Below, piece by piece: positions 1,516-35,268 of a DNA stretch of 64,000 nucleotides (its first letter is position 1; the number at the start of each line of letters is the position of its first letter). The DNA is from Bacilli bacterium (GTDB taxonomy: Bacteria > Bacillota_I > Bacilli_A > ML615J-28 > CAG-313). Where the stretch lies: NCBI GenBank assembly GCA_017937305.1, contig JAGBDV010000020.1, positions 160,576-224,575 of the forward strand, written 5' to 3'. The translations under genes were made by a program, and so were the position numbers. The notes beneath the pieces are model-generated. The model was not told the DNA's origin. It saw only the letters and a program-made list of their open reading frames with translations, and did no database searches.

Positions 1516-2499
1516 ATGAAAAAAATATTATTTTTTATCATATTCTTGTGTTTTAGTTTAACAATAAGTATCAACATTAAAGCAAATAATGATATTTATG
1601 TTATACCAGGTGGAGAATCAATTGGTCTAAAAATAGAAACTGGAGTTGAAATAGTTGGAAAATATTCAGTTTCTACTAATAATGGTAAAAAGAATCCTTG
1701 GCAAAAAAGTAATATTGAAATTGGAGACTATATAGAAAAAGTAAATGATTATAATGTAGAAAATAATGAATCGCTACTTAAAATATTAAAACAAATAGAT
1801 GAAAGTTCATGTATTTTGACAATAAAAAGAAATAATAAACTAATTAAAACAAATATTGATATTGTCAAAACTAATTCTAATGAACCATCAATAGGCTTAT
1901 ATGTAAAAGATAAAATGTTAGGTATAGGTACTTTATCATTTGTCTATGATAATAAATTTGCATCACTTGGCCATGGAATTTATGAAAATAATGAATTAAT
2001 AAATATTAACAATGGAGATTTAACTTATTCTAATGTAGTAAGTATAAAAAAAGCAACACTTAATCAATCTGGTGAAAAACGTGCAACTTTAGTACAAAAT
2101 AAAATAGGTGAAATTAAAACCATTAAAGATTCTGGAGTCTATGGTGTAATAAGTCAAAAAATAAATAAAAACAAAGTAAAAATTGCTGATATCGAAGATG
2201 TTAAATGTGACGATGCAGTAATATATACTGTTATTAATGGTAATAAAGTAGAAACATTTGATATAGAAATTATTGAAACAAAATATCAAAATAGTATTAA
2301 TTCTAAAGGTATAAAAATTAAAGTAACAGATTCTTTACTATTAAATGAAACTGGTGGAATAATACAAGGTATGAGTGGAAGTCCGATAATTCAAAATGGT
2401 GAATTAGTAGGCGTTGTATCACATGTAACACTAGATAATCCAATGATAGGATATGCTGTTTATGCTAAATGGATGTATGAAGATTTAATTAATTATTAA
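1516..2499 (+). CDS. spoIVB: SpoIVB peptidase (S55 serine protease with PDZ domain)
   Basis: It has an N-terminal signal/TM segment, a PDZ-like region, an SLGHGI His motif and a GMSGSPI Ser motif. AGGAGG lies upstream. It sits between recN and spo0A, as in Bacillus and Clostridium. Confidence 0.85.
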   Translation: MKKILFFIIFLCFSLTISINIKANNDIYVIPGGESIGLKIETGVEIVGKYSVSTNNGKKNPWQKSNIEIGDYIEKVNDYNVENNESLLKILKQIDESSCILTIKRNNKLIKTNIDIVKTNSNEPSIGLYVKDKMLGIGTLSFVYDNKFASLGHGIYENNELININNGDLTYSNVVSIKKATLNQSGEKRATLVQNKIGEIKTIKDSGVYGVISQKINKNKVKIADIEDVKCDDAVIYTVINGNKVETFDIEIIETKYQNSINSKGIKIKVTDSLLLNETGGIIQGMSGSPIIQNGELVGVVSHVTLDNPMIGYAVYAKWMYEDLINY

Positions 2500-2550: not shown

Positions 2551-2578
2551 TAATTGACAAATTTTGTCAATTATTTTT
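2551..2578 (+). terminator. 23-bp perfect palindrome TAATTGACAAATTTTGTCAATTA followed by a T-run; a weak AT-rich intrinsic terminator of spoIVB and/or an operator with two inverted 0A-box-like half sites
   Basis: 11-nt arms surround one central base, and TTTTT follows directly. Each arm contains TTTGTCAAT, which resembles the 0A box TTTGTCGAA. Confidence 0.35.
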
Positions 2579-2608: not shown

Positions 2609-2638
2609 TTGCTTAAAAAAGTTGAATTATGGTATTAT
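2609..2638 (+). promoter_or_regulatory. Candidate sigma-A-type promoter of spo0A (TTGCTT, 18-nt spacer, TGgTATTAT extended -10)
   Basis: Motifs were read directly about 30 nt upstream of the GGGGGA RBS and the ATG at 2668. Confidence 0.3.
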
Positions 2639-2667: not shown

Positions 2668-3453
2668 ATGCAAAATATAAAATTGTTAATCGCAGAAGAA
2701 AATGAAAATAATCAGTCGCTAATTACTGATTATTTACAACATGAAGGGTATTTTAATGTTATTGGGAGATATGATGATGAATCAAAAATTTTAAACACAT
2801 TAAAAGTAGTTCAAATTGATATCTTAATTATTAATCTATTTAAATCTAAATTTGATGGGGTAAAGATCATTGAACAACTTAGATATAATGATTCTGAATA
2901 TTTAGTTCCTAAAAGAATAGTTGCAGTTACACATTTTGTTAGTAACTATGTAAATGCTAAATTAAATGATTTGAATGTTGACTATTTAGCTGTTGAACCA
3001 GTCCAACTAGAAAGTTTTAGCAATATTTTAAAAGAAATGGCACTTTCATCTGATGATGTAATTGATAATAATTATGATCCTAATTTAGATGGGGAAATTA
3101 CAGATATTCTTCATGAAGTTGGAGTTCCAGCGCATATAAAAGGGTATTTATATTTAAGAGAAGCAATTACAATGGTATATCATAATTTAGATATTCTAGG
3201 ATCGATTACTAAAGTATTATATCCAGATGTGGCTAAAAAGTTTAATACAACTTCGTCTAGAGTAGAACGTGCGATTAGACACGCAATAGAAATTGCATGG
3301 GTAAGAGGTAATGTCGAAGCAATTAGTGAAATATTTAGTTATACTATTAGTTATAATAAATCAAAACCTACTAATTCAGAGTTTATTGCAATGATTGCAG
3401 ATCGCTTACGTCTTAATCATAGTAAAGAAAAAAGAATTAGATATATTGCATAA
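2668..3453 (+). CDS. spo0A: Spo0A-family transcription factor with a degenerate (pseudo-)receiver domain
   Basis: The C-terminal half is nearly identical to the canonical Spo0A effector domain ([71 protein letters not shown]). The N-terminal receiver aligns with Spo0A but carries EE for DD, N for the phospho-acceptor D, and E for the conserved K. Confidence 0.9.
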
Positions 3454-3489: not shown

Positions 3490-3684
3490 TTAAAGTTGCA
3501 TTAAAACTAATACTAAAGCAATAATAGCACTTCCACCAAGAAGAAGAGCTAATAAAGTAATAATGATTTTTCCACCTAATGTGCTTTGTGGAGCTTTAGT
3601 AACTACATATTCAGTAGATCCATCAGCACGTTTTGTAGTTTTAAGTAGTGGAGTTTTCTTTTGTTTCTTTTCTTTTTTACTCAT
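3490..3684 (-). CDS. Small tail-anchored membrane protein (64 aa), function unknown
   Basis: It has a Lys-rich N-terminus and a single C-terminal TM helix (IIITLLALLLGGSAIIALVLVLM). An AGAGGT RBS-like sequence lies upstream and a terminator downstream. Confidence 0.5.
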   Translation of the reverse strand: MSKKEKKQKKTPLLKTTKRADGSTEYVVTKAPQSTLGGKIIITLLALLLGGSAIIALVLVLMQL

Positions 3685-11649: not shown

Positions 11650-12675
11650 ATGAAACTTAGTATTAATAGTCTAATTAAAATTTTATTAATTATTTTAATC
11701 GCAATAAGCTTTTTATATTTATTTAATTATGTTTCATCTTTTATTTTTTCATTGCTTGGAATATTAGTTCCTTTTTTAATTGCGTTTACTGTTAGTTTTA
11801 TTGTAGATCCTTGGGTAAAATATTTAGAAAAGAAGAAGATTAATCATAAATTATCAGTTTTAATTATAATTTTGTTTTTAATAAGTATAATTATCTTATT
11901 TGGTGTATTCTTAGTTCCGTTAATTAATAAAGAACTTAGTTTTTTTATTGATAATTTCCCTGTATTAATTGATAAAATTAATGACTTATTTAATAATATA
12001 AAGTTCTTTAATAAAATAGGTCTGAATTTTAAAACAATAGTCAGTTTTTTAATTAATTCTAATGGTAATATAATAGATAAAATAATTAAATTTGTCACAG
12101 CGATTTTTTCCTCATTTATCCCAACTATTACAACTCCTATTTTAATAATCTATTTTATTGTTTATTATGAAAAAATAGAAAATTTAATTAAAAGATTAGT
12201 TGATAAAAATAGTGGTAAATACTTAATACTTAAAAACATTAAAGATTCAATGCATACGTATTTTAAATCATATTTAATTATCACTGTTTTATTAAGCTTT
12301 TTTAGTAGTATTGCGTTTATGTTACTTGAAATTGATTATTTCTTGATATGGGGAATTATAATTGGTATAACAAATATTATTCCATATGTTGGACCATATA
12401 TTGGAGGAGGTATAGTTGGGCTATTTGTGCTTACTACAAATCCAGAATTACTTATTTATGTTATAATAATTATAGTATGTTTACAGGTAATTGAAAGTAA
12501 TTTTTTGACTCCAAAAATTCAAGGTGAAGCATTAGAAATTAATCCGATTTTAGTTGTTTTTTCTGTGACATTTTTTGGTAAAATACTAGGAATTATTGGT
12601 ATGATTATTGCGGTTCCAATTGTAAGAATTATCCAAATAATTATAAAAGTGAAATTTTTTAACAAAAAAAGATAA
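11650..12675 (+). CDS. AI-2E family transporter (PerM/UPF0118)
   Basis: It has eight or so TM segments and the characteristic IPYVGPYIGG motif followed by ESNFLTPKI. Confidence 0.8.
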   Translation: MKLSINSLIKILLIILIAISFLYLFNYVSSFIFSLLGILVPFLIAFTVSFIVDPWVKYLEKKKINHKLSVLIIILFLISIIILFGVFLVPLINKELSFFIDNFPVLIDKINDLFNNIKFFNKIGLNFKTIVSFLINSNGNIIDKIIKFVTAIFSSFIPTITTPILIIYFIVYYEKIENLIKRLVDKNSGKYLILKNIKDSMHTYFKSYLIITVLLSFFSSIAFMLLEIDYFLIWGIIIGITNIIPYVGPYIGGGIVGLFVLTTNPELLIYVIIIIVCLQVIESNFLTPKIQGEALEINPILVVFSVTFFGKILGIIGMIIAVPIVRIIQIIIKVKFFNKKR

Positions 12676-12710: not shown

Positions 12711-12778
12711 ATAGTCATAAAATATGTGTATAAAAACCAACAAAAAATTATATGCTGATGGCAAAAGGAGAGAAAATT

Positions 12779-14467
12779 ATGTTAACAAAAGCAAACAAAG
12801 TAGTAATGTATATCCTTAGTATTGTTACTATTATACTTGGACTTGTTACAGCGATCCCATTTAGAACATTACCGTTCGCAAGCAATTGCCCTAATATTTT
12901 AAATGTGGAATTCTATGTTAAGTTCTTAGTTATTCCGGTATATGCATTAGGAGCTTGTGTTTTTCCAAATATCGTAAAATATAAACAAATTAAAAACAGA
13001 TTAGAAAGAAGCAAAGTAGCTAATATTCTTAGTTATTTACCAATTTTAGTTGTAATTATTGGTCAATTAATTTTATTAGTTCACACTTTAACTTTCAAAT
13101 ACTATCCAATGTCAGCTGGTGCTCATGCAGTATTACTAGCTATTTGTGTATGTTATTTAGTATTTATGATTTGCGTATTATTCGCTGTTAATAAGATTAC
13201 AGTAAGCTTATCTAGAAAATCAAATCGCATTTTTGATGTTATTGTTGGGGCATCATTAGTTATTTTTATTTTATTATCTTGGAGAATTTTAGATGCTTAT
13301 GCTGCAAGCTACGGTCTTGAAGAAGGTTATATTTATGGCCAATCTAACGTAGACCCATATTTATTCTTCTTATACATCATTTTATTATTTGTTACTGTAT
13401 TCTATCTAAAAGGTATTTTCAAAACAATTAAAGCTAATGAAACATTAGTTTATTCACAAGTTCTTACTAATGGTCAAATTGATGAAATCATTTGTGAAGA
13501 ATATAATCATGCTTATAATGATATTCTACAAGAATTTGAAGAATTCTTTGCAGAAGAATTATTAGAAGATACTGAAGAAGTAGAAGAACAAGCTGAAGAA
13601 GCAGAAGAACCTGCTGAAGAAGCACTTCAAGAAGTTGAAGAACCTGCTGAAGAAGCAGCTCAAGAAGTAGAAGAACCTGCTGAAGAGGTAGCTCAAGAAG
13701 TAGAAGAACCTGCTGAAGAAGCAGCTCAAGAAGAACAAGCTGAAGACTTATCAGAAATTAAAGTTGAATCATTAGAAGACTTAAATGAATTAAATGAATT
13801 ACTTGTTCAAACTGATACTAAGAATGATGAAAAAGTAGCTGAACAAGCTGAAAACATTAAAAACCAAATTGAAGAAGAAAAGAATGCTCTTGTAAATGAA
13901 AGAGCTGAATTAGAAGCTTATCGTGCTGCTGCTCAAGCTGAACTTGCTGCTTTACAAGCTCAACTTGACGAAATTGAAGAAGCTCAAGATGAAGTAGTTG
14001 AAGAAGCACCTGTTCAAAAGAAGAAAGTATTCAAACCTACATTTGAACAAGTTGTTGCATTCGCTAAATCTTTACAAGAAGAAGATTGGAAAGTTACTGA
14101 AAATATTAAAGAAGAAACAGGTACTGGTACAATTAAATTCTCTAAAGGTAAAGTTCAATTCTTAATTCTTCAAAGTACAAGTAGTGATTACCGTATTACT
14201 TTCTTAGCTACAGAAAAGAAATGGTCTACAATTTTAACTGGTGTTAAGGGCGTTTCTATTCCTAAAAATGCTAAAGGTAACAAGTGGTTAAAATATGTTA
14301 ACAAAGGTATCGGTGAAACTTCTGTTATCAAATCATTCATTAGAGAATCTGTTAAGGGTGCTAATGAAGAAATTGCTAATATTTTAAAAGCAAAAGAAGA
14401 AGAAAAACAACGTCGTGCTGAAGCTAAGAAATTAGCTAAACAACAAGCACAAGAAGAAAATAAATAG
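12779..14467 (+). CDS. Membrane-anchored acidic coiled-coil protein, paralog 1 (6 predicted TM, EEPAEE repeats, coiled coil, shared C-terminal domain); function unknown
   Basis: The ORF-track start is 12752, but the ATG at 12779 follows the RBS AAAGGAGAG. About 6 hydrophobic helices are followed by the EEPAEEA.QEV x4 repeat and then A/E/Q-rich heptads. A globular region follows (FEQVVAFAKSL, KFSKGKVQFLILQSTSSDYRITFLA) and then a K/E-rich tail. Confidence 0.8.
   Translation: MLTKANKVVMYILSIVTIILGLVTAIPFRTLPFASNCPNILNVEFYVKFLVIPVYALGACVFPNIVKYKQIKNRLERSKVANILSYLPILVVIIGQLILLVHTLTFKYYPMSAGAHAVLLAICVCYLVFMICVLFAVNKITVSLSRKSNRIFDVIVGASLVIFILLSWRILDAYAASYGLEEGYIYGQSNVDPYLFFLYIILLFVTVFYLKGIFKTIKANETLVYSQVLTNGQIDEIICEEYNHAYNDILQEFEEFFAEELLEDTEEVEEQAEEAEEPAEEALQEVEEPAEEAAQEVEEPAEEVAQEVEEPAEEAAQEEQAEDLSEIKVESLEDLNELNELLVQTDTKNDEKVAEQAENIKNQIEEEKNALVNERAELEAYRAAAQAELAALQAQLDEIEEAQDEVVEEAPVQKKKVFKPTFEQVVAFAKSLQEEDWKVTENIKEETGTGTIKFSKGKVQFLILQSTSSDYRITFLATEKKWSTILTGVKGVSIPKNAKGNKWLKYVNKGIGETSVIKSFIRESVKGANEEIANILKAKEEEKQRRAEAKKLAKQQAQEENK
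13604..13735 (+). repeat. In-frame 33-bp tandem repeat, about 4 copies, encoding EEPAEEA(L/A/V)QEV
   Basis: The unit GAAGAACCTGCTGAAGAAGCA.CTCAAGAAGT. begins at 13604, 13637, 13670 and 13703, with only a few substitutions between copies. Confidence 0.85.
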
Positions 14468-14483: not shown

Positions 14484-16313
14484 ATGTTATTAGAACGTGA
14501 TCGTAAGTTATTTCATCTTTTTGCAGTAATTTCTATTGCATTAAGTTTATTAGTTTGTATCCCTTACTCATTAGCTAAGGTTACATTATTTGAAATTATT
14601 GTTAAATACATGGTTATTCCATGTGCAATTGGTGTATTTACTTTTATTTGTTGGTCTGGTAAATATCGTAGCTATCGTCCAGCTGTAAAATTTACTACTA
14701 TTGTTACTTATACACCATTATTCTCATATACTGCTGCAATTTTATTTAATACATTACTATTATTAGTAAGAAATACTTCTGTTTATTCTCAACTTAAGTA
14801 CAACTTATTAATTATGGGATTAGCTGCAGTTTTAGTACTTATTATTGCATTAGCTCATGTTTATAGTAAATTTGTAATTAAGTTTTCTAAAAATGAAGCT
14901 TTAATCGCTGATTGTATTTTTGCAGTATTAGCACTTGCTTATACAATTGGTGGTGCATCAATTGCATTTGATTATCGTGCAATAGGTGGATTAGAATTTA
15001 AATCTGTTTTATACATTTTAATTCCTTTAATTCTAGGTGCTGCTGCTGCTTGGTTACATGTTTTAATCATTAACAATGCAAATGAACAAAAACAAGAATA
15101 TGTAGTTAAGAGCCGTCAAGAATTATATCAATTATGGGAAGAAAATTGTTTAACAGCTAAAAAGATTTATGAAGCTGCAAGAGAAAATATTTTAGAATCT
15201 TTATTAAACTACAATTTAGAAGAGTTAGGATTTGAAGAAGTTGAAGCAGTTGAAGAACCTGTTGAGGAAGTTATCGTAGAAAAAGATCCTGAACTAGAAA
15301 ATAAAGTAAATGAATTAGAAGCTGAAAAAGAAGCATTAGTAGGTCAAAATAATGAATTAAATGAACAAAATCAATCATTAGAAGAAAGAATTAATGCTTT
15401 AGAAGAACAAAATAAAGCTTTAAAAGAACAATTAGATGAAGTATTAGCAGTTATTGCTACATCTAAAGATATGATTGTAGATACACTTCAAAAGTGTGCT
15501 GATAATGATGCAGATTTAATTATGGATTCATTACAACATTCATTAGATGTTATTAAATCTGAACGTGAAGCTGTTGCTGAAAGTCGTCAAAAACTAGTTG
15601 CAGAAATTGAAGCTCAAAAAGCTGAAATTCAAGCTAAACTTGATGCACATGCTGAAAAAGTTGCTCTTGAAGAAAAAGCTAAAGCTGAAGCTTTAGAAAA
15701 AGCTCGTCTTGATGCTGAACGTCGTGCTAAAGAAGCTGAAGAACGTGCAAAAGAAAAGAAACCGATTGAACCTGACTTTGCTAAAGTTGTTGAATTTGCA
15801 GTTAGCGTAGGTAAAGATCGTGATGACGTTGAATTATCAGTTAATGATAAGCAAACAATGTACAAATTCTTACATGATGGTACTGCATTTATTGCTCTTC
15901 AAAAGACTAATAATGATTACCGTATTTCATTCCTTGCTAAAACTGAAGCAATGCGTGAACTTTTATATCAATATAATGGTGTTATTAGTTTTGATAAAGT
16001 TGTTGAATTTGAAAAAGCTAAATATTCTATTCAACTATTAAAAGCTGTTTATAAAGGTGATGAATCATTAGCCATTGAAGTAGTACAAGAATTATTAACT
16101 AATTCACTTGCTGTATTACTTGAAGCTGAAGAATTAGAAGCTCAAGCAATCGCTAAAGAACAAGCTGCTAAAGAACGTGCTAAACTTGCTGAACAAGCAT
16201 TAAGAGAAAAAGAAAGAGCTTTAGCTAAAGAAGAAGCTAAACGTCAAAAAGAATTACAAAAAGCTCAAGAAGAAGCAGAAAAACAACAAGCTGCTCCTGA
16301 AGAAGCTGCATAA
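14484..16313 (+). CDS. Membrane-anchored coiled-coil protein, paralog 2 (6 predicted TM, long coiled coil, shared C-terminal domain); function unknown
   Basis: Same architecture as the upstream gene. Its C-terminal globular region (FAKVVEFAVSV, KFLHDGTAFIALQKTNNDYRISFLA) aligns with paralog 1. The RBS is GAAAGGA. Confidence 0.8.
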   Translation: MLLERDRKLFHLFAVISIALSLLVCIPYSLAKVTLFEIIVKYMVIPCAIGVFTFICWSGKYRSYRPAVKFTTIVTYTPLFSYTAAILFNTLLLLVRNTSVYSQLKYNLLIMGLAAVLVLIIALAHVYSKFVIKFSKNEALIADCIFAVLALAYTIGGASIAFDYRAIGGLEFKSVLYILIPLILGAAAAWLHVLIINNANEQKQEYVVKSRQELYQLWEENCLTAKKIYEAARENILESLLNYNLEELGFEEVEAVEEPVEEVIVEKDPELENKVNELEAEKEALVGQNNELNEQNQSLEERINALEEQNKALKEQLDEVLAVIATSKDMIVDTLQKCADNDADLIMDSLQHSLDVIKSEREAVAESRQKLVAEIEAQKAEIQAKLDAHAEKVALEEKAKAEALEKARLDAERRAKEAEERAKEKKPIEPDFAKVVEFAVSVGKDRDDVELSVNDKQTMYKFLHDGTAFIALQKTNNDYRISFLAKTEAMRELLYQYNGVISFDKVVEFEKAKYSIQLLKAVYKGDESLAIEVVQELLTNSLAVLLEAEELEAQAIAKEQAAKERAKLAEQALREKERALAKEEAKRQKELQKAQEEAEKQQAAPEEAA

Positions 16314-16320
16314 TAAAAAT

Positions 16321-16541
16321 TGTTGATAGAAGATAAGTAAATATATTTAATTATTTATAGAGAAAAGCTGGTCGGTGAAAAGCTAATAATTGGTATATTG
16401 AAGCTCCTTCTGTAGATGGGACTAATCCTCTCCGCTTGAAGCGTTAAAACTAAAACTGAGCGTATAAAGTTATCTTTATAAACTAGGATGGTACCGCGAA
16501 TTCATGTTCGTTCCTAATAATATTAGGGACGAACTTTTTTT
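16321..16541 (+). promoter_or_regulatory. T-box leader (tRNA-Ala sensing riboswitch) of alaS
   Basis: There is an AGAGA stem I element. A GCT candidate specifier lies at 16403-16405 in the context TTGAAGCTCC. The conserved T-box sequence AGGATGGTACCGCG lies at about 16485-16498. The terminator hairpin GTTCGTTCCTA/TAGGGACGAAC plus T7 spans 16507-16541. Confidence 0.85.
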
Positions 16542-16556
16542 ATGAAAGGACAAATT

Positions 16557-19262
16557 ATGAAAAAATTAAAAGGCTATGAAATAAGACAATTATGGCTTGA
16601 TTTCTTTAAATCTAAAGGACATGCTGTAATTCCAAGTGCTCCACTTGTACCCCATGATGATCCAACTTTGCTTTGGATTAATGCTGGTGTTGCACCACTA
16701 AAAAAATACTTTGATGGTCGTGAAAAACCAACAAATCCTCGTATGTGTAATGCACAAAAATCTATTCGTACTAATGATATAGATAATGTTGGTAGAACAT
16801 CTCGTCACCATACATTCTTTGAAATGCTTGGAAACTTTTCAATTGGTGATTATTTTAGAGACGAAGTTATTCCTTGGGCAACTGAACTTTTATTTGATGA
16901 AAAATGGTTTGGATTTCCTAAAGAAAAGATTTATATTACGTATTACCCTGATGATACAGAAACATTTAATAGATGGATTGAAAATGGTGTAGATAAAACT
17001 CATTTAATTGCTCTTCCTGGAAACTTCTGGGAAATTGGTGAAGGACCATGTGGACCTGATACTGAAATTTTCTTTGACCGTGGTGAAAAATATGATCCAG
17101 AAAATCTTGGAATTAAAATGTTAGAAGAAGATATGGATAATGAACGTTATATTGAAATTTGGAATATTGTACTTAGTCAATTTAACTCTGTTACTAATCT
17201 TTCAAGAGATGAATATCCAGAACTTCCTAGCAAAAATATAGATACAGGTTCAGGATTAGAACGTCTAGCATGTATTTTCCAAGAAACTGAAACTAACTAT
17301 GAAACTGACCTTTTCTTACCTTTAATTAACTTTGTAGAAGATTATACAGGTATTAAATATGAAGGTGAAAATAAAATGGCATTTAGAGTAATTGCTGATC
17401 ATGTAAGAAGTGTAAGCTTTGCAGTAGCTGATGGTGCAATTATATCTAATGAAGGTCGTGGGTATGTTTTAAGAAGAATATTACGTCGTGCAGTTAGATA
17501 TGGAAAACGCCTTGGTATCAATGAACCATTCTTATACAAAATGGTATCTATAGTTGTTGAAAATATGAAACAATTCTATTCATATTTAACTGAAAAACAA
17601 GCTATTATCGAAAAAATCATTAAAACTGAAGAAGAAAACTTCTTAAGAACATTAGAAACTGGTGAAAAGAAACTAAACGATATTATTAATTCTAATAAGA
17701 AAAAAAGCATTGATACTATTAGTGGTAAAGATGCATTCTTATTATATGATACATTTGGCTTCCCAATTGAACTTACTGAAGAAATATCTAATGAAGCTTC
17801 ATTTAAAGTTGACATTGAAGGTTTTAAAAATGAACTTAATGCTCAAAAGATGCGTGCTCGTGCTGCTAGAAGCGATATGCAATCAATGAATACGCAAAAT
17901 GAAGCGTATTTAAACTTTACTAAAGAAAGTTCCTTTGTAGGTTATGATAATTTAGAAGTTTCTGCAAAAGTAATCGGTTTATTTAATAATAATACTTTAG
18001 TTGATAAAGCTTCTGGCTCTACTGTTATTGTATTTGATAAAACTCCATTCTATGCAGAAATGGGTGGTCAAGTAGGTGATGAAGGTGATGTTGTTTTTAA
18101 TGGTGAAACATTTAAAGTATTAAATACATTTAAACTTCCAAATGGCCAACATGCGCATTTAGTAAATCTTTTAGAAACTGTTTTAAAGAATGATGATGAA
18201 GTATTATTAAAAGTAAATGAAGAATTTAGAAATAATGTATGTTCTAATCACTCTGCAACTCATCTTTTAAATGAAAGTTTACGAAAAGTATTAGGTTCTC
18301 ATGTTGTTCAACAAGGATCACTTGTTACCGATGACCGTTTAAGATTTGACTTTAACCATTATAATAATTTATCTAATGAAGAAATATTAAATATTGAATC
18401 GTTAGTAAATGAACAAATTAATAATTCTTTAGATGTAAAAACACTTGAATTATCAAAAGAAGATGCAATTAAAACTGGCGCACAAGCTGCTTTTGGTGAG
18501 AAATATGGTGATACTGTAAGAGTAGTAGACATGGGCTTTTCTAAAGAATTATGCGGTGGTACACATGTTAAAAATACTAAAGAAATTGTAAAATTTGCAG
18601 TAGTATCGATTGAATCAAAAGGTTCTGGAATATTTAGAATTGAAGCTTTAACAAAAGATAAAGTTTTAAATTCAATGAGTGAACATTTGAGCTTAATAAA
18701 AGATGAAATTACAATTTTAATTTCTAAAGCAAAAGAAATTGTTAATAAAGCCTGTGAAGATGAATTTAAACTTGAAATGCCTAAATTTAATATTCCAGTA
18801 ATTCTTGGTAGTTATCAAGATATTATTAACTACAGAGTTGCACTTGAAGATGCAAGAAGACTTGTTAAAGAATTAGAAAAAACATATGATAATATGTTTA
18901 GAAGTAAGAATTCATCATCTTATAAAGCATATTTGGATGAAGTAGAAGTTATTAATGGTATAAGTGTACTTGTTAAACGTGTTGATAATGTTAATATTGA
19001 TGTATTAAAAGATATTATTGATAAAGTTTCTGCAGAACTTGGAAAAAGTGTTGTTTTCTTTGCTGATGTAATGGATGGTGGAAAAATCATTTTTGTTGCA
19101 AAAGCTAAAGAAAATGCAGCAAACTGTGGTATGCTAGTTAAAAATGCAGCAATTATCACTGGTGGTAATGGTGGAGGAAGACCTGATTTTGCTCAAGCAG
19201 GTGGAAAAGATGCATCTAAAGTTGATGAAGCTTTAAAAGCAGTGAAGGATGCAATTAAATAA
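16557..19262 (+). CDS. alaS: Alanine--tRNA ligase
   Basis: AlaRS motifs are present (FFKSKGH, RTSRHHTFFEMLGNFS, HSATHLL editing domain, C-terminal DHHA1 GGGRPDFAQAGG). The ORF-track ATG at 16542 directly abuts the terminator T-run. The ATG at 16557 follows the RBS AAAGGA and gives the usual MKKL..EIRQ.. N-terminus. Confidence 0.95.
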   Translation: MKKLKGYEIRQLWLDFFKSKGHAVIPSAPLVPHDDPTLLWINAGVAPLKKYFDGREKPTNPRMCNAQKSIRTNDIDNVGRTSRHHTFFEMLGNFSIGDYFRDEVIPWATELLFDEKWFGFPKEKIYITYYPDDTETFNRWIENGVDKTHLIALPGNFWEIGEGPCGPDTEIFFDRGEKYDPENLGIKMLEEDMDNERYIEIWNIVLSQFNSVTNLSRDEYPELPSKNIDTGSGLERLACIFQETETNYETDLFLPLINFVEDYTGIKYEGENKMAFRVIADHVRSVSFAVADGAIISNEGRGYVLRRILRRAVRYGKRLGINEPFLYKMVSIVVENMKQFYSYLTEKQAIIEKIIKTEEENFLRTLETGEKKLNDIINSNKKKSIDTISGKDAFLLYDTFGFPIELTEEISNEASFKVDIEGFKNELNAQKMRARAARSDMQSMNTQNEAYLNFTKESSFVGYDNLEVSAKVIGLFNNNTLVDKASGSTVIVFDKTPFYAEMGGQVGDEGDVVFNGETFKVLNTFKLPNGQHAHLVNLLETVLKNDDEVLLKVNEEFRNNVCSNHSATHLLNESLRKVLGSHVVQQGSLVTDDRLRFDFNHYNNLSNEEILNIESLVNEQINNSLDVKTLELSKEDAIKTGAQAAFGEKYGDTVRVVDMGFSKELCGGTHVKNTKEIVKFAVVSIESKGSGIFRIEALTKDKVLNSMSEHLSLIKDEITILISKAKEIVNKACEDEFKLEMPKFNIPVILGSYQDIINYRVALEDARRLVKELEKTYDNMFRSKNSSSYKAYLDEVEVINGISVLVKRVDNVNIDVLKDIIDKVSAELGKSVVFFADVMDGGKIIFVAKAKENAANCGMLVKNAAIITGGNGGGRPDFAQAGGKDASKVDEALKAVKDAIK

Positions 19263-22533: not shown

Positions 22534-22848
22534 ATGATAGTAAATAAAACACTTATTGAAATTGAAAATATGATTAAAATGAAAAGAAGTTTTATTTTAT
22601 GTACTTATTATATTGATACTTATAGTAACTTTTACACAGCTATGCTAAATAAAGAATTAAAAAAAGTTTTTATTGATATATTTTACATAGGAGTTGAAGA
22701 CTTTTTAAAAATATGTAATCTCAATAAAAGAATTTTTCCAATTTTTTGTATATTTGCAGATGGAAAGATAGTGTGGAAAAAATGTGGATTTATTAGTTTT
22801 TCTGAGATATCTAATGAATTTACGAAAAAATTAGTCCTTTTTTCATAA
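22534..22848 (+). CDS. Hypothetical protein (104 aa)
   Basis: ORF with a GAGGTAAG RBS and a terminator downstream. No motif was recognised. Confidence 0.4.
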   Translation: MIVNKTLIEIENMIKMKRSFILCTYYIDTYSNFYTAMLNKELKKVFIDIFYIGVEDFLKICNLNKRIFPIFCIFADGKIVWKKCGFISFSEISNEFTKKLVLFS

Positions 22849-22874
22849 TTTGAATTTTTTATATCCTAAAAAAA

Positions 22875-22910
22875 GAGTAATTTGTAAAAAGCAAATTATT
22901 CTTTTTTTTT
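22875..22910 (+). terminator. Intrinsic terminator
   Basis: GAGTAATTTG-TAAAAAG-CAAATTATTC is followed by T9. Confidence 0.7.
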
Positions 22911-22933
22911 AATTATATAAGTGAGGTGAAAAA

Positions 22934-23344
22934 ATGAAAAATGGTTTTACATTAATTGAGGTTTTAGTTACAACAGTAATAATCGGAATCTTTATTGTTA
23001 TTTGTATCCCTTGTTTAAATAGTATGAACAAATATTTTAATAATATTAATATCACCCAAATAAAAGTTTTAAATAAGATTAATTTTTATTCTAAAATTGA
23101 TGCTGTAAATGAACAAACAAATATAATTTATTATTCAATCGAAGATGAATTAAAAATTTTTATAAATGAACATAAGATTAAAATTTCAGAAGAAAATTAT
23201 TTATATTTTGATAATATAAATTATGATATCACAGTTGAAGATATACAAATTAAAAAAGAATATATTTTAATTAATATTGTTATTAATGATAAAGAACAAT
23301 GTATAATTCTTAAGGGGGAAGTATATGAGATTAGTTCAAGCTAA
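22934..23344 (+). CDS. Type IV pilin-like protein (prepilin-type N-terminal cleavage/methylation domain)
   Basis: MKNG|FTLIEVLVTTVIIGIFIV shows the G/FTLIE class III signal with Glu at +5. The RBS is GTGAGGTG. Confidence 0.8.
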   Translation: MKNGFTLIEVLVTTVIIGIFIVICIPCLNSMNKYFNNINITQIKVLNKINFYSKIDAVNEQTNIIYYSIEDELKIFINEHKIKISEENYLYFDNINYDITVEDIQIKKEYILINIVINDKEQCIILKGEVYEISSS

Positions 23345-24119
23345 AATTTTTAATGTAAATAGATGCTATTACGTAATAGTGGAAAGAATCAAATTAACTG
23401 ATAAATCTAAGATATTAGAATTTGAATATACAAAAAAGTTAGATAATAAAATTGAAGTTCAATATTATTTAACTAACATTTTAAATACAAAAGAACTAAG
23501 AAAAAATAAAATATTTATTAATTATATAAGCAATGATGTACTTATCGAAACAATAAATCAAAACAAAGAAAATAAAGAAGATTTTCATAAACAATTAAAC
23601 AACTTATATCCTAATTATAAACAAGACTATGAATTATTAACAGGTGAAATTAAGTATAATTCAAAAAACAAAAAGAAGGTTTGTGCTTTAGTTAAAAATG
23701 AAGTAATTAGTGAAATTAAAACACTTTTATCATTGGTTGGTAAAAAAAGAGTTTATTATGGGGTAGATTCATTGTTGTTGCAGCAATTAATAAATAAAAA
23801 TTCTGTTATGTTTAATAAAAAATATTTAGTATTAATTCAGAAAAATTTCAATTATTATCGCTTTTATCAAATTTTAAATGGGAAAATTATAAATTATATT
23901 GTTTTAGATAGTGAATCTAATGATTTTAATGACATTTATAAAAGTATCATTAAATTAATTGATAGTAAGGTTGATGAAGTGATTGTAGATGCTGAATATA
24001 ACGTTTATATTGAATTAGTAGATAAATTATTTAATGTTAATGTTGTTTTAATAGATTATATAGAAAGAATTAATCATATTGATGAAAGAAAGATAGTGTA
24101 TGGAAAAAAGACGATATAA
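23325..24119 (+). CDS. Pilus-cluster protein of unknown function (possibly a PilM-like assembly protein)
   Basis: It has a good RBS (AGGGGGAAG) and is embedded between pilin genes with overlapping stops and starts. It has no pilin signal. The PilM-like guess rests only on position and size. Confidence 0.45.
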   Translation: MRLVQAKIFNVNRCYYVIVERIKLTDKSKILEFEYTKKLDNKIEVQYYLTNILNTKELRKNKIFINYISNDVLIETINQNKENKEDFHKQLNNLYPNYKQDYELLTGEIKYNSKNKKKVCALVKNEVISEIKTLLSLVGKKRVYYGVDSLLLQQLINKNSVMFNKKYLVLIQKNFNYYRFYQILNGKIINYIVLDSESNDFNDIYKSIIKLIDSKVDEVIVDAEYNVYIELVDKLFNVNVVLIDYIERINHIDERKIVYGKKTI

Positions 24120-24477
24120 AAAAGGTATAACCTTAATTGAAGTAATTATTGCAGTAACTTTATTTAGTATAATCTTTTTATCGAATTTCTTTATAACTAC
24201 TAAGTTATTTGAAATGACGAAAGATAATGAAGAGTTGCTGGAACAATCTTTATTTTTAGAACAATGTTATGATTTATTTACTGTAGATCCGATAAACTTT
24301 AAAGCTAATCTAAGCGATGCTTATGGAGGCTCTTGGGAAAATGAAATTTATTCACCAATTATTTATTATGGTATTAAAATTAAACATTATGAAACAGAAG
24401 AATTTATTCATATTTTCATTTTAAATGATGATGAGGTAAAAGAAGAATGGGTAAGAAAAAAGGTAACACTATTATAA
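24100..24477 (+). CDS. Minor pilin-like protein (prepilin-type N-terminus)
   Basis: MEKRRYKKG|ITLIEVIIAVTLFSIIFL is a class III signal with Glu +5. Confidence 0.75.
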   Translation: MEKRRYKKGITLIEVIIAVTLFSIIFLSNFFITTKLFEMTKDNEELLEQSLFLEQCYDLFTVDPINFKANLSDAYGGSWENEIYSPIIYYGIKIKHYETEEFIHIFILNDDEVKEEWVRKKVTLL

Positions 24478-24758
24478 TTATGTTGATTTTTGTTTTTTTA
24501 ATTAGTTCATTTATTGGTTGTTTTATAATTTTTAATAATTCAATAACAAAAAAAGTAGATAAAATGATTGAAAAAAATGAAAAAATTAGGAAATTAGAAC
24601 TATCTGCATATGAATATTATTTATCTGATTGGGAAGCAAATGATAAATTTTACATTGAAGATCAAATTATTATTTATAGATTAGATGAAAATATTAGATT
24701 TTATATTTATGAAGAAAATGGAACTATTAATATAAGGAGGCTATTTGAAAATGAATAA
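24447..24758 (+). CDS. Pilus-cluster small membrane-anchored protein (ComGG/PilX-like candidate, no Glu+5)
   Basis: MGKKKGNTIIIMLIFVFLISSFIG gives one N-terminal TM. A GAGGT RBS is present. It overlaps both neighbouring genes. Confidence 0.5.
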   Translation: MGKKKGNTIIIMLIFVFLISSFIGCFIIFNNSITKKVDKMIEKNEKIRKLELSAYEYYLSDWEANDKFYIEDQIIIYRLDENIRFYIYEENGTINIRRLFENE

Positions 24759-25953
24759 ATATTATTATGTTGCAAGATCACCTACTGGAAAAAAAGAAAA
24801 AGGTTATTTACAAGTTGAAAATGAAAATGCATTAATCGATATTATGCTAAAACATAATTATCGATTAATTAAATATCATATTGCGAAAAAGAAAAAACCA
24901 TTATTTTCATTTTTATCCGTTAATAAAAATGATTTGCTTAGCTTTTGTGAAAATGTAAATATGATGTTAAGGGCTGGATTAACATTGAAAGAAGCAATTC
25001 ATTTATGTCAAGATGTAACTAATAAAGAATACTTTAAGAAAATATTGGTAGAAATTGAAAAAGAACTATCAAAAGGTAAGTCGTTATCAAGCATAATTAA
25101 CAATTACCCTGAGGTTTTTCCGATCTTTTTTAGGACAATGATTAATTTAGCTGAAATAAGTGGTAATTTAAAAACAATTTTTGAACATTTAATTAAATAC
25201 TATCGTTTTGATATAAGCATTAGGAAGAAAACTTTAAACTCGTTATTTTATCCTAGTTTACTATTTGTTTTATGTTTTGTTGTAATTATTGTTATGTCTA
25301 CTGTTATTGTTCCTTCGTTTATAAAGATATTTAACGAAATGAATGTTGAACTTCCTTTAATAACTAGAATAATCATTTTTTTATCAGAAATTGTTTCTAA
25401 GTACTATGTTTTAGGTTTTATTATTTTAATATCATTAGGGGTTTTTGCATACTTTTTTTCTAAAACAACTAAAGGGAAAAAGTTTATTGATAAGTTAAAA
25501 ATAAAACTAATAATTATAAAACAGTTTTCAAAAATATCATTAACAAGTAGATTTTGCAGAAGCTTAAAGATATTAATTGATAGTGGAATTCCGATAGTTT
25601 CTAGTATGGATATTTGCTCATCACTTTTAGGAAATTTATATTTAAAAGAAAAATTTATCTTTGCAGTTGATGAAATTAAAAGAGGAGCAAATATTTCAGA
25701 AGCTTTATTTTCTACGAATTTTTTTCCAACATTAGTTACTGAGACTATATTTATTAGTGAAAAAACTGCAAATTTAAGCTATAGTTTAGAAATTCTAAGT
25801 AATATTTATGAAGAAGAACTACAGCACAAAATTCAAAAGTTAACAACAATTATTGAACCAGCACTAATTCTATTTATTGCGTTAATAGTAGTAATTTTAA
25901 TTATCGCAATATTTATTCCTTTATTCTCGATGTTAAATAATATAGGAGCTTAA
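24745..25953 (+). CDS. pilC: Type IV pilus platform protein PilC / GspF family
   Basis: Two GspF-type repeats with 3 TM segments, about 400 aa. The start is TTG 24745 or ATG 24751, after AAGGAGG. Confidence 0.85.
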   Translation: MKMNKYYYVARSPTGKKEKGYLQVENENALIDIMLKHNYRLIKYHIAKKKKPLFSFLSVNKNDLLSFCENVNMMLRAGLTLKEAIHLCQDVTNKEYFKKILVEIEKELSKGKSLSSIINNYPEVFPIFFRTMINLAEISGNLKTIFEHLIKYYRFDISIRKKTLNSLFYPSLLFVLCFVVIIVMSTVIVPSFIKIFNEMNVELPLITRIIIFLSEIVSKYYVLGFIILISLGVFAYFFSKTTKGKKFIDKLKIKLIIIKQFSKISLTSRFCRSLKILIDSGIPIVSSMDICSSLLGNLYLKEKFIFAVDEIKRGANISEALFSTNFFPTLVTETIFISEKTANLSYSLEILSNIYEEELQHKIQKLTTIIEPALILFIALIVVILIIAIFIPLFSMLNNIGA

Positions 25954-25954
25954 T

Positions 25955-27460
25955 ATGAAATCGTTAAATGTAAACTTTAAAGATTTAAAATCTGACCAAT
26001 CTTGTTTAAAAATACTTCCTTTAGAATTTGTTAATAAATATAATTGCATCATTTATTGTAATTATGATAATGGTAAAGTAGTATTAGTAAATGATAATTT
26101 TGATTATTATAATCTAAATAAACTATCATTTTTTATTAAAGAAGAATTATATATTTGTTATGTACATCATGAAGATTGGATTGAACTTACAAAAAATTTA
26201 AAAATTAATGATGATCGTAATCAAGCTATAAATAAATTCCAGATAAATTCTAATATTATTTCTCAAAGTTCTTTAAATGAAAACAATAAAGTGTTTTATA
26301 ATGCAGAAATTGAAAGTTCTCCAATAGTTAAAATAGTGGATTCCATAATTGAAGAAGCTATAAATTACAAAAGTAGTGATATTCATTTTGAACCATATGA
26401 ATCTTATGTTAAAGTCAGACTTAGAATTGATGGAAAACTTTTTGATAAATCTCCTCTCCCATTTGAAACTTTTAGTGAATTGTCTACAAGAATTAAAGTT
26501 TTAGCTAACTTAGATATTACAAAAAAATTTATTCCTCAAGATGGAAAAATGATTTTTAGCTATGAAGGTAAAGATTATGATATAAGAGTTTCTATTTTAC
26601 CTTGTGCATATGGAGAACGAATTGCTCTTAGAATATTAGATTTACATAATAATATTTTAAGATTGAATGATTTGAATTTTTCAAATAAAGCAATGGAAAA
26701 TATTAATCGAATTTTAGGATTTTCTTCTGGATTAGTTTTAGTTGTTGGACCAACTGGAAGTGGAAAATCAACAACATTACATGCATTTTTAGAAAAAAAT
26801 TTAGAAAGAAATGAAAATATTATAACGGTAGAAGATCCTGTTGAGTATACAATTGAAGGTATTACTCAAGTTCAAATTAATGAAGAAGCTGGTCTTGATT
26901 TTGCAACATGTTTAAGGACGATTTTAAGACAAGATCCTAATATTATTATGATAGGGGAAATTAGAGATTTAGAAACAGCTAAAATAGCATGTAGGTCTTC
27001 AATTACAGGACATCTTGTTTATTCTACACTTCATACTAACACATCTGTGGGAGTAATAAATAGATTAAAAGATATGAATATAGAACCATATTTATTAGTA
27101 GATGCTTTACGTGCTATAATTTCTCAAAGATTAGTTAGATGCTTATGTAATAGATGTAAGAAAAAAGTTAAAATTAATTCTTATGAAGCAAAAGCGTTGG
27201 ATGTAGATGAAGACATTTATATTTATAAACCAGTAGGTTGTGGCTACTGCAATAATACTGGATATAGTGGTAGATGTGGAGTTTATGAAGTAATAATACT
27301 AGATGAAGATTTTAGAAAATTAATTACTGAAAATTCTACATCAGCAAAGTTTTGGAATTTAATTAAGAAAAAGAAAATAGAAAGAATATTTGACAACGGG
27401 AAGTTATTAGTATTAAATGGAATAACTTCTCTAGAAGAAATTCAATCAGTATTAAATTAG
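25955..27460 (+). CDS. pilB: Type IV pilus assembly ATPase PilB / GspE family
   Basis: N-terminal GspE_N-like domain, Walker A VVGPTGSGKSTT, Asp box, Walker B IIMIGEIRD, His box, and a tetracysteine motif (CNRC ... CGYC). Confidence 0.9.
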   Translation: MKSLNVNFKDLKSDQSCLKILPLEFVNKYNCIIYCNYDNGKVVLVNDNFDYYNLNKLSFFIKEELYICYVHHEDWIELTKNLKINDDRNQAINKFQINSNIISQSSLNENNKVFYNAEIESSPIVKIVDSIIEEAINYKSSDIHFEPYESYVKVRLRIDGKLFDKSPLPFETFSELSTRIKVLANLDITKKFIPQDGKMIFSYEGKDYDIRVSILPCAYGERIALRILDLHNNILRLNDLNFSNKAMENINRILGFSSGLVLVVGPTGSGKSTTLHAFLEKNLERNENIITVEDPVEYTIEGITQVQINEEAGLDFATCLRTILRQDPNIIMIGEIRDLETAKIACRSSITGHLVYSTLHTNTSVGVINRLKDMNIEPYLLVDALRAIISQRLVRCLCNRCKKKVKINSYEAKALDVDEDIYIYKPVGCGYCNNTGYSGRCGVYEVIILDEDFRKLITENSTSAKFWNLIKKKKIERIFDNGKLLVLNGITSLEEIQSVLN

Positions 27461-27470
27461 GAGGAAAATT

Positions 27471-27893
27471 GTGAAAAAGAAAATGAAAAAAGGGTTTACC
27501 CTAGTTGAAATGTTAGTTGTTGTTGTTATTATTGGAATTTTAAGTACTGTTTTATACTCAAGTTATAAACGATATGTTAATTCTACTAAGAGTACAGTTG
27601 CACGTGCAGAATTAATGACGATTGTTCAATGTTTTGAAACGGCAATGGTTGATAATTCTAGAACAGGATATAAAGATGGGGATATAAATCCAGAATCTTT
27701 TACTACTTTTGATGAATTATTTGAACTTGATTTAGTTACAACATATAATTACATTTCAGAAATTAAATTACCATTAAGTGTAGAATTAAGTGTAACAGAT
27801 AAAGATATGCTTAAATACGTTGATACAAGTGATGGAGTAGAAGTAATTTATGATCCTGTACAAAGGTCAGTTGTATCAGTAATTATCTACTAA
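27471..27893 (+). CDS. Major pilin candidate (prepilin-type N-terminus)
   Basis: (V)KKKMKKG|FTLVEMLVVVVIIGILS is a class III signal with Glu +5. The strong RBS AGGAGGA precedes it, and the start is GTG 27471 or ATG 27483. It is the last gene of the cluster and is followed by a terminator. Confidence 0.8.
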   Translation: MKKKMKKGFTLVEMLVVVVIIGILSTVLYSSYKRYVNSTKSTVARAELMTIVQCFETAMVDNSRTGYKDGDINPESFTTFDELFELDLVTTYNYISEIKLPLSVELSVTDKDMLKYVDTSDGVEVIYDPVQRSVVSVIIY

Positions 27894-27898
27894 AAAAT

Positions 27899-27925
27899 AA
27901 AGGGTTAGACTTTGTCTAACCCTTT
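27899..27925. terminator. Bidirectional hairpin between the pilin gene and the convergent gene
   Basis: AAAGGGTTAGAC-TTT-GTCTAACCCTTT is a perfect 12-bp stem that overlaps the stop of the - strand gene. Confidence 0.7.
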
Positions 27926-28914
27926 ATTAAATTATAAATACTTAAAGCTGTTAAGGATTCAACAAAAATAATTTTTTTATGTAAATTAAAATACTCTTGC
28001 TTAGACTTAACAATATAAATATTTTCCAACGTTTTATAATTAATACTAGTACTATTTTTATTAAATAAAAAAGGTGGTAAAAAATGAGTAGAAAACTTCA
28101 CGATATCACTTGTTGTAATTCCGGATTCTACTCCGTAATAAACATTTGAGGTATATTTAATTATGTCATTTTCAAAACTAATATTACTATAACAGTTTTC
28201 TAAATTAGCATTAATTAAATATACATTTGCAAATTCTAAACTCTTTAAACCTGGGATTAAATACAATGTTCCTGCAAGATTTGCTTCAAATAAATTAAAA
28301 TATGGCTTACCAAGTCCTTTGGGGATATTATAAATAATTGTTTCTAAACTACCACTAATTGGTTGTTTGCTGTTGATTGCTTTATTAATTATTTTTTGCA
28401 TTAATTGTTTTGCTCTATGATCTACGATTGGTAATTTATCTTGTGTATATAGATTTATGTCATTAATTAATGTATCATAATTATTAATATTATCATAGAT
28501 ATTTTTTATTGAATTAATGTGAGTAAAAAATTTGATATTATAATTGTGGTTAAGAAATTCTTTTATTATTAACCCTATAATTGTAATTCCAATTATATTA
28601 TATTTAAGTAAATCAGCATTATTTATTGTTTTATTATATTTATTAAGATAATATAAATGATTTTCTTCAGGATTTATTATATCATTTTCTGATAATTCGT
28701 TATTTATATTTAATATTAAAGCGAAATTATTAAAAAAAGACTCATTCGCATTAATGAATTCGACAGTAATTTCTTTATAATCATTTAATAATGGTGTTAT
28801 AATTTTATAAAGATCAATGTTATGATCAATTTTAAGATTTCTTGTTGAAAATAATAATTTATTATTTGATAATTTTGTAATATCAATTTTAAAAGAAGAA
28901 TTTATAAATTGCAT
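27916..28914 (-). CDS. Highly divergent chorismate synthase-like protein (catalytic motifs apparently lost)
   Basis: Central and C-terminal blocks align with AroC ([44 protein letters not shown] vs [56 protein letters not shown] vs GLEGGMTTG). The N-terminal GESHG motif is absent, and RPGHADL appears as TINNADL. Confidence 0.5.
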   Translation of the reverse strand: [332 protein letters not shown]

Positions 28915-33519: not shown

Positions 33520-33882
33520 CGGAAAGATAATCGAGCACATTTTTATGTGTTAGGAAAGTCCATACTAGCACAATCTGCGATGATTGTAGTGTTTGCGCTT
33601 AACGAAAAAATAAGTTAAGGTACTATCCAATGGTTAGTAACGGCGAATGAAACCTAAGGCTTTTTGCTATGGTGTAGTTCTGAAAGTGCCACAGAGACGA
33701 TTTTCTTTTGGAAACAAAAGAGTGGAACGGGTAAACCCCACAAGCTAGCAACCCAAATTTTGGTAGGGGCATGATTTTAGGGAGAATTGAATCCACTAAA
33801 ATTACACTATTTAATAGTGAGATAAATGATTATCACTTCTTAATGAAGGACAGAATATGGCTTACAAAGTATTAATTATCAA
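33520..33882 (+). ncRNA. rnpB: RNase P RNA (bacterial, low-GC Gram-positive type)
   Basis: Conserved blocks are present: AGGAAAGTCCATACTAGCACA, AAAGTGCCACAGAGACGA, GGGTAAACCCCACAAG and GGACAGAATATGGCTTACA. A P1-like pairing joins GATAAT (33526-33531) with ATTATC (33875-33880). The ends are approximate. Confidence 0.88.
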
Positions 33883-34632: not shown

Positions 34633-35268
34633 ATGATATTAAATAAAACTTTTAAGCAATTAATTAAAATTAAAGATTTAGCTTACTTAAATGATCTTGG
34701 TTGTGAAGTAATTGAATATTATCCTAATAAACAATATTTAAATGGTAGAGTTTATGTAACAGGAGCCTATCATTCATCAAAGAATAATGAAGTAAAGCTA
34801 ATATCTGAAGATTTGGAATTTATGTTTGATTTAGAAAAAGAGGACTTTTATATTGACGATATTGAATGTATAAGTTTTGATTATAATGTTTTAGAAACTG
34901 AGGGTATTGAATTTTCATATGAAATTAAATTAGATGTAAATATTATAGAAGAATTTGATTTAAGAGAAGACGATTCATTAAATTTTGAAGAAACCCTTGA
35001 AACAATTAAAGAAGAAATTGGAAATATTGTAGAGGAAAAACTAAGTGATAAACTAGATGTAGTTGATGATAATTTACCCCAGAATGAAGAAATGTTTAGA
35101 TCACTAAATGATGATAATAAAACTATTAAAATAATTTATTTTAATGATGAAAAAGAATTATCTAAAATAGCTGAACAAAATAATGTTTCGATTGATTATT
35201 TATTTAAATGTAATAAGAATTATAACTTTAATGAAAATAAACGAGTGATTATACCTTATGGAAAATAG
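34633..35268 (+). CDS. SpoVID-like protein: N-terminal domain, acidic linker, C-terminal LysM domain
   Basis: The C-terminal 45 aa fit a LysM pattern (IIYFNDEKELSKIAEQNNVSIDYLFKCNKNYNFNENKRVIIP). The middle is acidic. A YsxE-like gene is adjacent, as with B. subtilis ysxE-spoVID. Confidence 0.5.
   Translation: MILNKTFKQLIKIKDLAYLNDLGCEVIEYYPNKQYLNGRVYVTGAYHSSKNNEVKLISEDLEFMFDLEKEDFYIDDIECISFDYNVLETEGIEFSYEIKLDVNIIEEFDLREDDSLNFEETLETIKEEIGNIVEEKLSDKLDVVDDNLPQNEEMFRSLNDDNKTIKIIYFNDEKELSKIAEQNNVSIDYLFKCNKNYNFNENKRVIIPYGK

Follow-up and report, generated by a model that had tools for sequence, protein, structure and literature searches.

A Spo0A orthologue without the phospho-acceptor aspartate in a clade of uncultured gut Bacilli

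The spo0A gene and its receiver domain

We study a spo0A gene in a stretch of 64,000 nucleotides from a Bacilli bacterium (contig JAGBDV010000020.1 of assembly GCA_017937305.1, positions 160,576 to 224,575; the whole stretch is called the window below). Its product keeps the DNA-binding domain of this master developmental regulator and carries a receiver domain with no Asp at the phospho-acceptor position. Reviews and experimental papers treat phosphorylation at this residue, D56, as the universal switch of endospore formation. An earlier reading of the DNA from its letters (the sequence-only reading) had compared the protein with Bacillus subtilis Spo0A by eye. It claimed that the acceptor Asp, the acidic pair and the conserved Lys are replaced while the conserved Thr and the effector domain are retained, and it named a profile alignment, a structural model of the receiver and a survey of related genomes among the ways to check this. 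We have followed these three.

The gene lies at 2668..3453 on the forward strand (stop codon included) and encodes 261 amino acids; its identification rests on the open reading frame (ORF), on its matches to TIGR02875 and Spo0A_C and on synteny. The Pfam model Spo0A_C (PF08769) matches with E = 2e-43 over its whole length, and the full-length protein scores 245.4 bits against the NCBIfam equivalog TIGR02875 (spore_0_A), for which the curated cut-off is 200. The N-terminal half scores 27.3 bits against Response_reg (PF00072), under the gathering score of 30.2. Upstream of the start codon is a strong ribosome-binding site, GAAAGGGGG, at 2651-2659, and directly 3' of the stop codon is a hairpin resembling an intrinsic terminator (3453-3483, forward strand). 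Immediately upstream of spo0A is an intact spoIVB (1516..2499, forward strand; Peptidase_S55, TIGR02860 at 291 bits), the gene of the sporulation signalling serine peptidase, with its GMSGSP catalytic motif intact. The gene order is nusB-xseA-xseB-dxs-recN-spoIVB-spo0A, followed by a small convergent ORF and then by murI, an ABC-F gene and polC.

We find the same order around three relatives of the gene whose proteins are 81%, 66% and 63% identical to it (loci L085, L086 and L087) and around a homologue that keeps D56 in a sister lineage (L092), and spo0A directly follows spoIVB in Bacillus-type genomes as well. Judged by gene order and similarity, we have here the positional orthologue, at the ancestral locus of spo0A, and not an obvious paralogue. 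The small convergent ORF (3490..3684, reverse strand) encodes 64 amino acids, is rich in Lys at the N-terminus, has a single hydrophobic helix at the C-terminus, and has no family match; an ORF of 60-71 amino acids occupies that position in every related locus, the sister lineage included.

The effector domain, which binds DNA and activates transcription, spans residues 138-252 (3079..3423, forward strand) and includes the recognition-helix region. With the solved Spo0A C-domains 1fc3 and 1lq1 it shares 72-76% identity, and a Foldseek comparison superposes it on 1lq1 with a template-modelling (TM) score of 0.96 and a root-mean-square deviation (rmsd) of 1.0 A. The description of this domain as almost unchanged, recognition-helix region included, holds up well.

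The receiver (residues 1-126; 2668..3045, forward strand) is delimited from an AlphaFold2 model, Foldseek matches, its substitution pattern and the sub-threshold Response_reg match. In a phmmer search of the PDB, residues 1-123 align with the B. subtilis Spo0A receiver 9phz, with no gaps around the active site, and a MAFFT alignment of 120 homologues recovers the same columns. In this pairing N56 (AAT, 2833..2835) lies under the phospho-acceptor D56, and E110 (GAA, 2995..2997) lies under the conserved K108. E10-E11 (GAA GAA, 2695..2700) take the place of the acidic pair D10-D11, K59-S60-K61 (2842..2850) that of M59-P60-H61 in the beta3-alpha3 loop, and H replaces A87. The conserved Thr is retained as T88 (ACA, 2929..2931), which is T86 in B. 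subtilis numbering; we use that numbering below for positions in the family. All of these codons are read on the forward strand.

The three substitutions that had been read by eye are thus real: profile alignments with solved Spo0A receivers, together with the AlphaFold2 model, give the same result, and T88 pairs with T86 as claimed. They differ in what they mean. The acidic pair is indeed altered, and E-E is still acidic; the Spo0A of Thomasclavelia cocleata combines E-E with D56, so this change is not in itself evidence of loss. For the others we turn to a control set of 77 Spo0A orthologues from Bacillaceae, Paenibacillaceae, Brevibacillus, Peptostreptococcaceae and other Bacillales and Clostridia loci, taken among the matches listed in a scan of a genome collection, most of which are from Bacillaceae and Paenibacillaceae. 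Since D10, D11, D56, T or S at 86 and K108 are present in 77/77 of them, the triple change is far beyond chance. A shift of register that would place a real Asp at the acceptor position, which the sequence-only reading had named as one finding that would overturn it, was looked for and is ruled out: the alignment to 9phz is gap-free there, beta3 comprises residues 52-56 in the model, and D51 and D63, both shared with canonical Spo0A, have no Asp between them.

The AlphaFold2 model, built from 71 homologues, has a mean predicted local distance difference test (pLDDT) score of 83.7 and predicts a regular (beta-alpha)5 receiver at pLDDT of about 85-90 (beta1 4-9, alpha1 18-26, beta2 29-35, alpha2 38-47, beta3 52-56, alpha3 64-73, beta4 83-88, alpha4 93-101, beta5 106-109, alpha5 114-126). 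N56 falls at the C-terminal end of beta3, the place of the acceptor Asp. Foldseek matches the modelled receiver to the Spo0A receivers 1qmp and 5wq0 with TM scores of 0.84-0.88 and rmsd of about 2 A.

By its sequence and its predicted structure this is an aspartate-less receiver (ALR), that is, a receiver fold with no phosphorylatable Asp, a recognised class of which ChxR is an example (PMC4395418). It resembles the ALR regulators in its retained receiver fold, its replaced acceptor and pocket residues, its intact output domain and its presumed independence of phosphorylation. HP1043, RitR, GlnR and the BldM/WhiI-type proteins are further ALR or atypical response regulators. Unlike the window protein, none of the ALR regulators in the literature we searched is a Spo0A or controls endospore formation. 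With canonical Spo0A (B. subtilis, Geobacillus stearothermophilus, Clostridioides difficile) the protein shares the two-domain architecture, the locus after spoIVB, the receiver fold and the recognition-helix region, and it departs from it in the five places described above (D10-D11, D56, M59-P60-H61, A87 and K108). In sequence and locus it is a Spo0A, and what it lacks, judged by its residues, is the mechanistic hallmark of the family, activation at D56.

The receiver across relatives

Now we consider how far the altered receiver extends. In our homologue list, the sequences down to about 63% identity (P0001-P0039) are all without the Lys and, with one exception, without D56; from 61% identity downwards D56, T86 and K108 are present. 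Among the matches listed in the genome-collection scan is one deep member, L001 (RUG293, a rumen metagenome-assembled genome, or MAG, and a GTDB representative genome), which is 53% identical to the window protein and has T56 and L108; its relatives P0159-P0161 have S56 with A or F at position 108. A neighbour-joining (NJ) tree, drawn with no bootstrap values, groups every Lys-less sequence into one clade; one member, P0037, still has D56. The members are Bacilli of animal guts, uncultured and very AT-rich, and related to Erysipelotrichales and Acholeplasma-like orders. This answers the survey of relatives that had been proposed: on these sequences, the receiver change is clade-wide and not a one-off.

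To describe conservation we reduce the clade to 21 sequences by removing redundancy at 90% identity. Position 56 is S in 62% of them, with N, T, C, E or D in the rest; at position 108, 52% have E and the others L, Y, Q, A or F. Where the DNA of a locus was read, the codon at 56 is AAT, TCT or TCA, ACT, GAA or GAT, and that at 108 is GAA, CTT or TTA, TAT or GCA. The residues around these two sites are conserved at 90-100% (V55, L57, F58, F62, D63, G64, Y104 and P109), with P109 at 100% and V55, L57 and F58 each at 90% or more. Positions 56 and 108 are thus the most variable sites inside otherwise conserved motifs, which suggests that phosphotransfer chemistry was abandoned and not replaced by one new chemistry. 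T86 is conserved in 100% of the clade, and the beta3-alpha3 loop has conserved residues of the clade's own (K59 0.90, K61 0.95, F62 1.00). The most common replacement of the acceptor in ALRs generally is Glu, at 26% (PMC4395418); in this clade, by contrast, Glu is rare at that site and the residue is not fixed.

The sister lineage is informative here. It comprises P0040-P0120, MAGs named 'Bacilli bacterium', 'Acholeplasmataceae bacterium' and 'Tenericutes bacterium' (locus L092, 10001-10786), and it keeps D56, T86 and K108 at about 100% each, with Glu at position 10 in 94%. At position 11, where all 77 controls have the Mg2+-binding Asp, this lineage varies freely among N, S, K, T, D, E and A, and the M-P-H loop is variable there too. 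Thus the active site had become unusual even before loss of the Asp and Lys. The Spo0A proteins of the sister lineage and of T. cocleata have a very similar effector, a fast-evolving receiver and Glu at position 10, as in the clade, and the sister lineage also shares its spo0A locus. Both differ from the clade in keeping D56 (100%), and the sister lineage further in keeping K108 (100%) and in having no K59/K61 pair.

Beyond the clade, N56 and L86 occur in P0173 and P0177, which keep the Lys, and P0173 sits at a canonical recN-spoIVB-spo0A locus (L093, 8206-8988). Two further sequences, P0207 (N56 and L108) and P0222 (V56 and I108), carry Spo0A_C motifs. From these sequences, uncultured lineages seem to have lost D56 independently on several occasions.

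Within the clade the receiver has a proportion of nonsynonymous differences (pN) of 0.20-0.35 against a proportion of synonymous differences (pS) of 0.50-0.79. The corresponding ratios are 0.13-0.36 and behave like upper bounds, since synonymous sites are saturated. For the effector, comparisons inside the main group give a ratio of nonsynonymous to synonymous rates (dN/dS) of 0.015-0.09, and those with the L001 group reach about 0.25; across the clade this domain is nearly invariant and is the most conserved Spo0A-type domain we found. Because of the saturation, we compare protein distances of the receiver and the C-terminal domain in place of dN/dS. At matched effector divergence, the receiver has diverged about as much as in the D56-keeping sister lineage, so it is no more relaxed than where D56 is kept; in both lineages it diverges faster than in Bacillales and Clostridia. 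No frameshifts occur in the clade receivers. The best-conserved receiver elements are beta5 (0.94) and alpha4 (0.81), and the least conserved is alpha1 (0.52), the helix that contacts phosphodonors in canonical regulators. Taken as sequences, these receivers are under purifying selection and are not decaying.

A search with the receiver only, against 1.84 billion representative proteins, returns just 324 matches at E ≤ 1e-3, which indicates how far this domain has diverged from ordinary receivers. The search also turned up further Spo0A-like proteins that lack D56. A precomputed PF00072 match is absent from most clade members.

Control of Spo0A in the clade

The reading we favor, and to which we give slightly better than an even chance, is that Spo0A in the clade is functional and independent of phosphorylation, has an aspartate-less receiver, and is controlled through its abundance, by autoregulation or by a partner. 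The switch that starts sporulation would then probably work differently in these bacteria. On this reading the effector would still bind 0A boxes. The receiver, its acceptor Asp, Lys and M-P-H loop being gone, would keep a CheY-like fold but accept no phosphoryl group, and it would act as a phosphorylation-independent structural, dimerisation or partner-binding module, of which alpha4-beta5 is the most conserved part. K59 and K61 may cancel the charge of E10 and E11 in what is left of the acidic pocket and so stand in for Mg2+ and phosphate. The activity of Spo0A would be set by the amount of protein, through an autoregulated promoter with 0A-like boxes, or by some protein partner in place of a kinase or phosphorelay, or by both.

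Two experimental systems help to frame this reading. In C. difficile, sporulation is lowered by each of the changes D10A, D11A, D56A, M59A, H61A, A87S and K108A, and Spo0A with D56A is no longer phosphorylated (bioRxiv 10.1101/2022.02.07.479450). Given the effects of these single mutants, a canonical Spo0A could not be expected to tolerate the combination found here unless compensating changes came with it. In B. subtilis, the laboratory allele spo0A-sad67 is constitutively active, an example of how receiver changes can activate Spo0A with no phosphorelay (PMC4689505). Spo0A-Sad67 lacks part of its receiver through an in-frame deletion, engineered or selected, whereas the clade receiver is full length, natural and lineage-wide.

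A fuller version of the mechanism strikes us as conceivable, though doubtful. Here endospore formation in the clade would be started with no His-Asp phosphotransfer at all: Spo0A would be locked in an active-like, dimer-competent state by pairing of K59/K61 with E10/E11, and the decision would fall to Spo0A abundance, through the autoregulatory promoter, or to a protein or ligand at alpha4-beta5. The same might hold in at least two or three of the other uncultured lineages that lack D56.

The region between spoIVB and spo0A bears on the autoregulatory part. Upstream of the window gene we find a palindrome, ATTGACAAATTTTGTCAAT (2553..2571), each half of which is a 0A-box-like heptamer with one mismatch; aligned with it in relatives are exact TTCGACA, TTTGACA or TGTCGAA boxes, whereas the pattern is not significant when the window is taken by itself. 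Closer to the gene is a promoter-like element of low confidence (2609..2638, forward strand), comprising TTGCTT, an 18-nt spacer and an extended -10, TGg-TATTAT. It is conserved in the alignment of intergenic spacers, and its weak -35 kept it off our consensus scan. Overall the spoIVB-spo0A spacers of the clade align poorly, and what they have in common is this promoter-like element with heptamers further upstream, often paired about 10 bp apart. In nine orthologous spacers (eight from the clade and one from the sister locus; 1,474 bp) we count 11 heptamers against 0.32 expected, an enrichment of about 35-fold that none of 2000 shuffles reaches (0/2000), and whose statistic overstates independence because the spacers are kin. 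As a pattern of sites, this is suggestive of spo0A autoregulation in the clade, and weakly so for the window genome.

Several observations, that kinship among them, weigh against the reading we favor. The window's own spo0A promoter has one-mismatch 0A boxes only, and across the 64-kb window neither exact TGTCGAA (3 observed, 3.7 expected) nor tandem 0A boxes are enriched. With dS saturated, the selection ratio omega is bounded rather than precise. In the deepest branch of the clade, L001 and L094, spoIVB is missing from its usual place. The group to which the lineage belongs is described as reductively losing sporulation genes (PMC10868615). Finally, a second, canonical spo0A is possible outside the 64-kb window.

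The rival that survives best, which we nevertheless hold unlikely, is that sporulation has been or is being lost. Spo0A would then have become a transition-state or stationary-phase regulator, or be on its way out, and its receiver chemistry would have decayed with no kinase input. Consistent with this, smaller sets of sporulation genes and repeated losses of sporulation have been described for RFN20, ML615J-28 and RF39 (PMC10868615). In the L001/L094 branch spo0A comes straight after recN, at a distance of only about 215 bp (L094 8112-10783, L001 83-1906), and the effector is more diverged; there spoIVB may have moved or been lost, and exact TGTCGAA and TTCGACA boxes still lie upstream of spo0A in L094.

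The other sporulation genes of the window, which the sequence-only reading had taken as a sign that the pathway persists, give a mixed answer. spoIVB stands. A dacB-like carboxypeptidase gene (56118..56972, reverse strand) has two Gate-domain ORFs after it in the position of spmA and spmB, and by similarity and arrangement the dacB-spmA/spmB identity is plausible. A ysxE-like ORF (35258..36217, 59 bits) and a ytvI-like ORF (11650..12675, 84 bits), the latter not part of the original claim, are weak matches, which together with the Gate-domain ORFs are what a lineage losing the pathway might show. The ORF that is probably the SpoVID-like candidate of the sequence-only reading (34633..35268, forward strand), between ysxC (engB) and the ysxE-like gene, has no credible family match. 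On the other side, spoIVB is intact and constrained in the window species and its nearer relatives (pN 0.16-0.33 against pS 0.54-0.58 among clade members), and the effector is nearly invariant. The receiver has kept its length, its confidently predicted (beta-alpha)5 fold and pN below pS, and has gained new conserved residues, which is not what simple decay would lead one to expect. The earlier judgement that this is not simple decay therefore finds support in the substitution pattern, the absence of frameshifts, the predicted fold and the adjoining spoIVB. Loss of sporulation also concerns the output of the regulator, and as such it is compatible with a phosphorylation-independent mechanism.

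Control by some other covalent modification seems to us improbable. It could act on Ser, Thr or Cys at position 56 in the relatives, through a Hanks-type kinase at another residue such as T88, or as an acyl-phosphate on E10/E11. Ser/Thr phosphorylation is known for some atypical response regulators, position 56 is Ser in most of the clade and Thr or Cys in some others, and T88 is conserved throughout. However, the window protein has Asn at 56 and other members have Glu or Asp, so that no one modifiable chemistry is conserved there, and the Thr is conserved in canonical Spo0A too and is therefore not specific to the clade. No kinase gene was found among the ORFs scanned in the 64-kb window; histidine kinase, Spo0F, Spo0B and Spo0E genes were likewise absent from that set.

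More improbable still is that the gene is an extra, degenerate copy, for instance a dominant-negative or anti-activator, while a canonical spo0A elsewhere does the real work. Our view of the genome is 64 kb, which leaves room for such a gene, but this one occupies the ancestral locus after spoIVB in an order common to the D56-keeping sister lineage and Bacillus-type genomes, carries the most conserved effector of its type and passes the equivalog model. Among the homologues retrieved, the nearest with both D56 and K108 are at most 61% identical, and the one that could be located lies at the same locus in another lineage.

We give next to no credence to an artefact of sequencing, assembly or binning, or to a pseudogene: the identical protein is found on at least 24 contigs from independent samples, studies and pipelines, which rules out a sequencing error, the frame is open with a ribosome-binding site and terminator, and dozens of diverged relatives share its state.

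In the searchable literature we found no report of a Spo0A that is aspartate-less, atypical or phosphorylation-independent, and studies of sporulation in MAGs and these orders record only whether spo0A is present or absent. If our favored reading is true, a natural and selectively maintained Spo0A with no acceptor would be the first counter-example to the D56 switch. It would show a master developmental regulator uncoupled from two-component signalling, and structural studies of the active state would gain a natural 'constitutive' Spo0A scaffold. It would also bear on the control or loss of sporulation in abundant uncultured gut Bacilli related to Mollicutes, and it would be a warning that the rule 'spo0A present = sporulator' in MAG surveys ignores the state of the receiver. 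On the fuller version of the mechanism, repeated loss of D56 would imply that genome-reduced gut Bacilli can do without a kinase input regarded as universal for sporulation.

Other features of the window

Further along the window we note several features away from the spo0A locus. A cluster resembling a type IV pilus or competence pseudopilus (22534..27893, forward strand) encodes a T2SSF platform protein and a T2SSE ATPase, together with three ORFs with an N-terminal methylation motif and several small ORFs with no match. Just beyond it, a chorismate-synthase-like ORF (27916..28914, reverse strand) matches the aroC model from residue 107 on, at 93 bits against a cut-off of 212, and may be a degenerate or divergent copy. 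Two adjacent ORFs of 571 and 609 amino acids (12752..14467 and 14484..16313, forward strand) have no Pfam match and no credible NCBIfam match. Three others on the reverse strand, at 41047..41580, 50535..51587 and 62550..63659, have no credible family match either; with the SpoVID-like candidate they encode 177-369 amino acids. The window also contains a T-box leader (16314..16518, forward strand) before alaS (16542..19262) and an RNase P class B RNA (33524..33865, forward strand), both ordinary for Bacillota.

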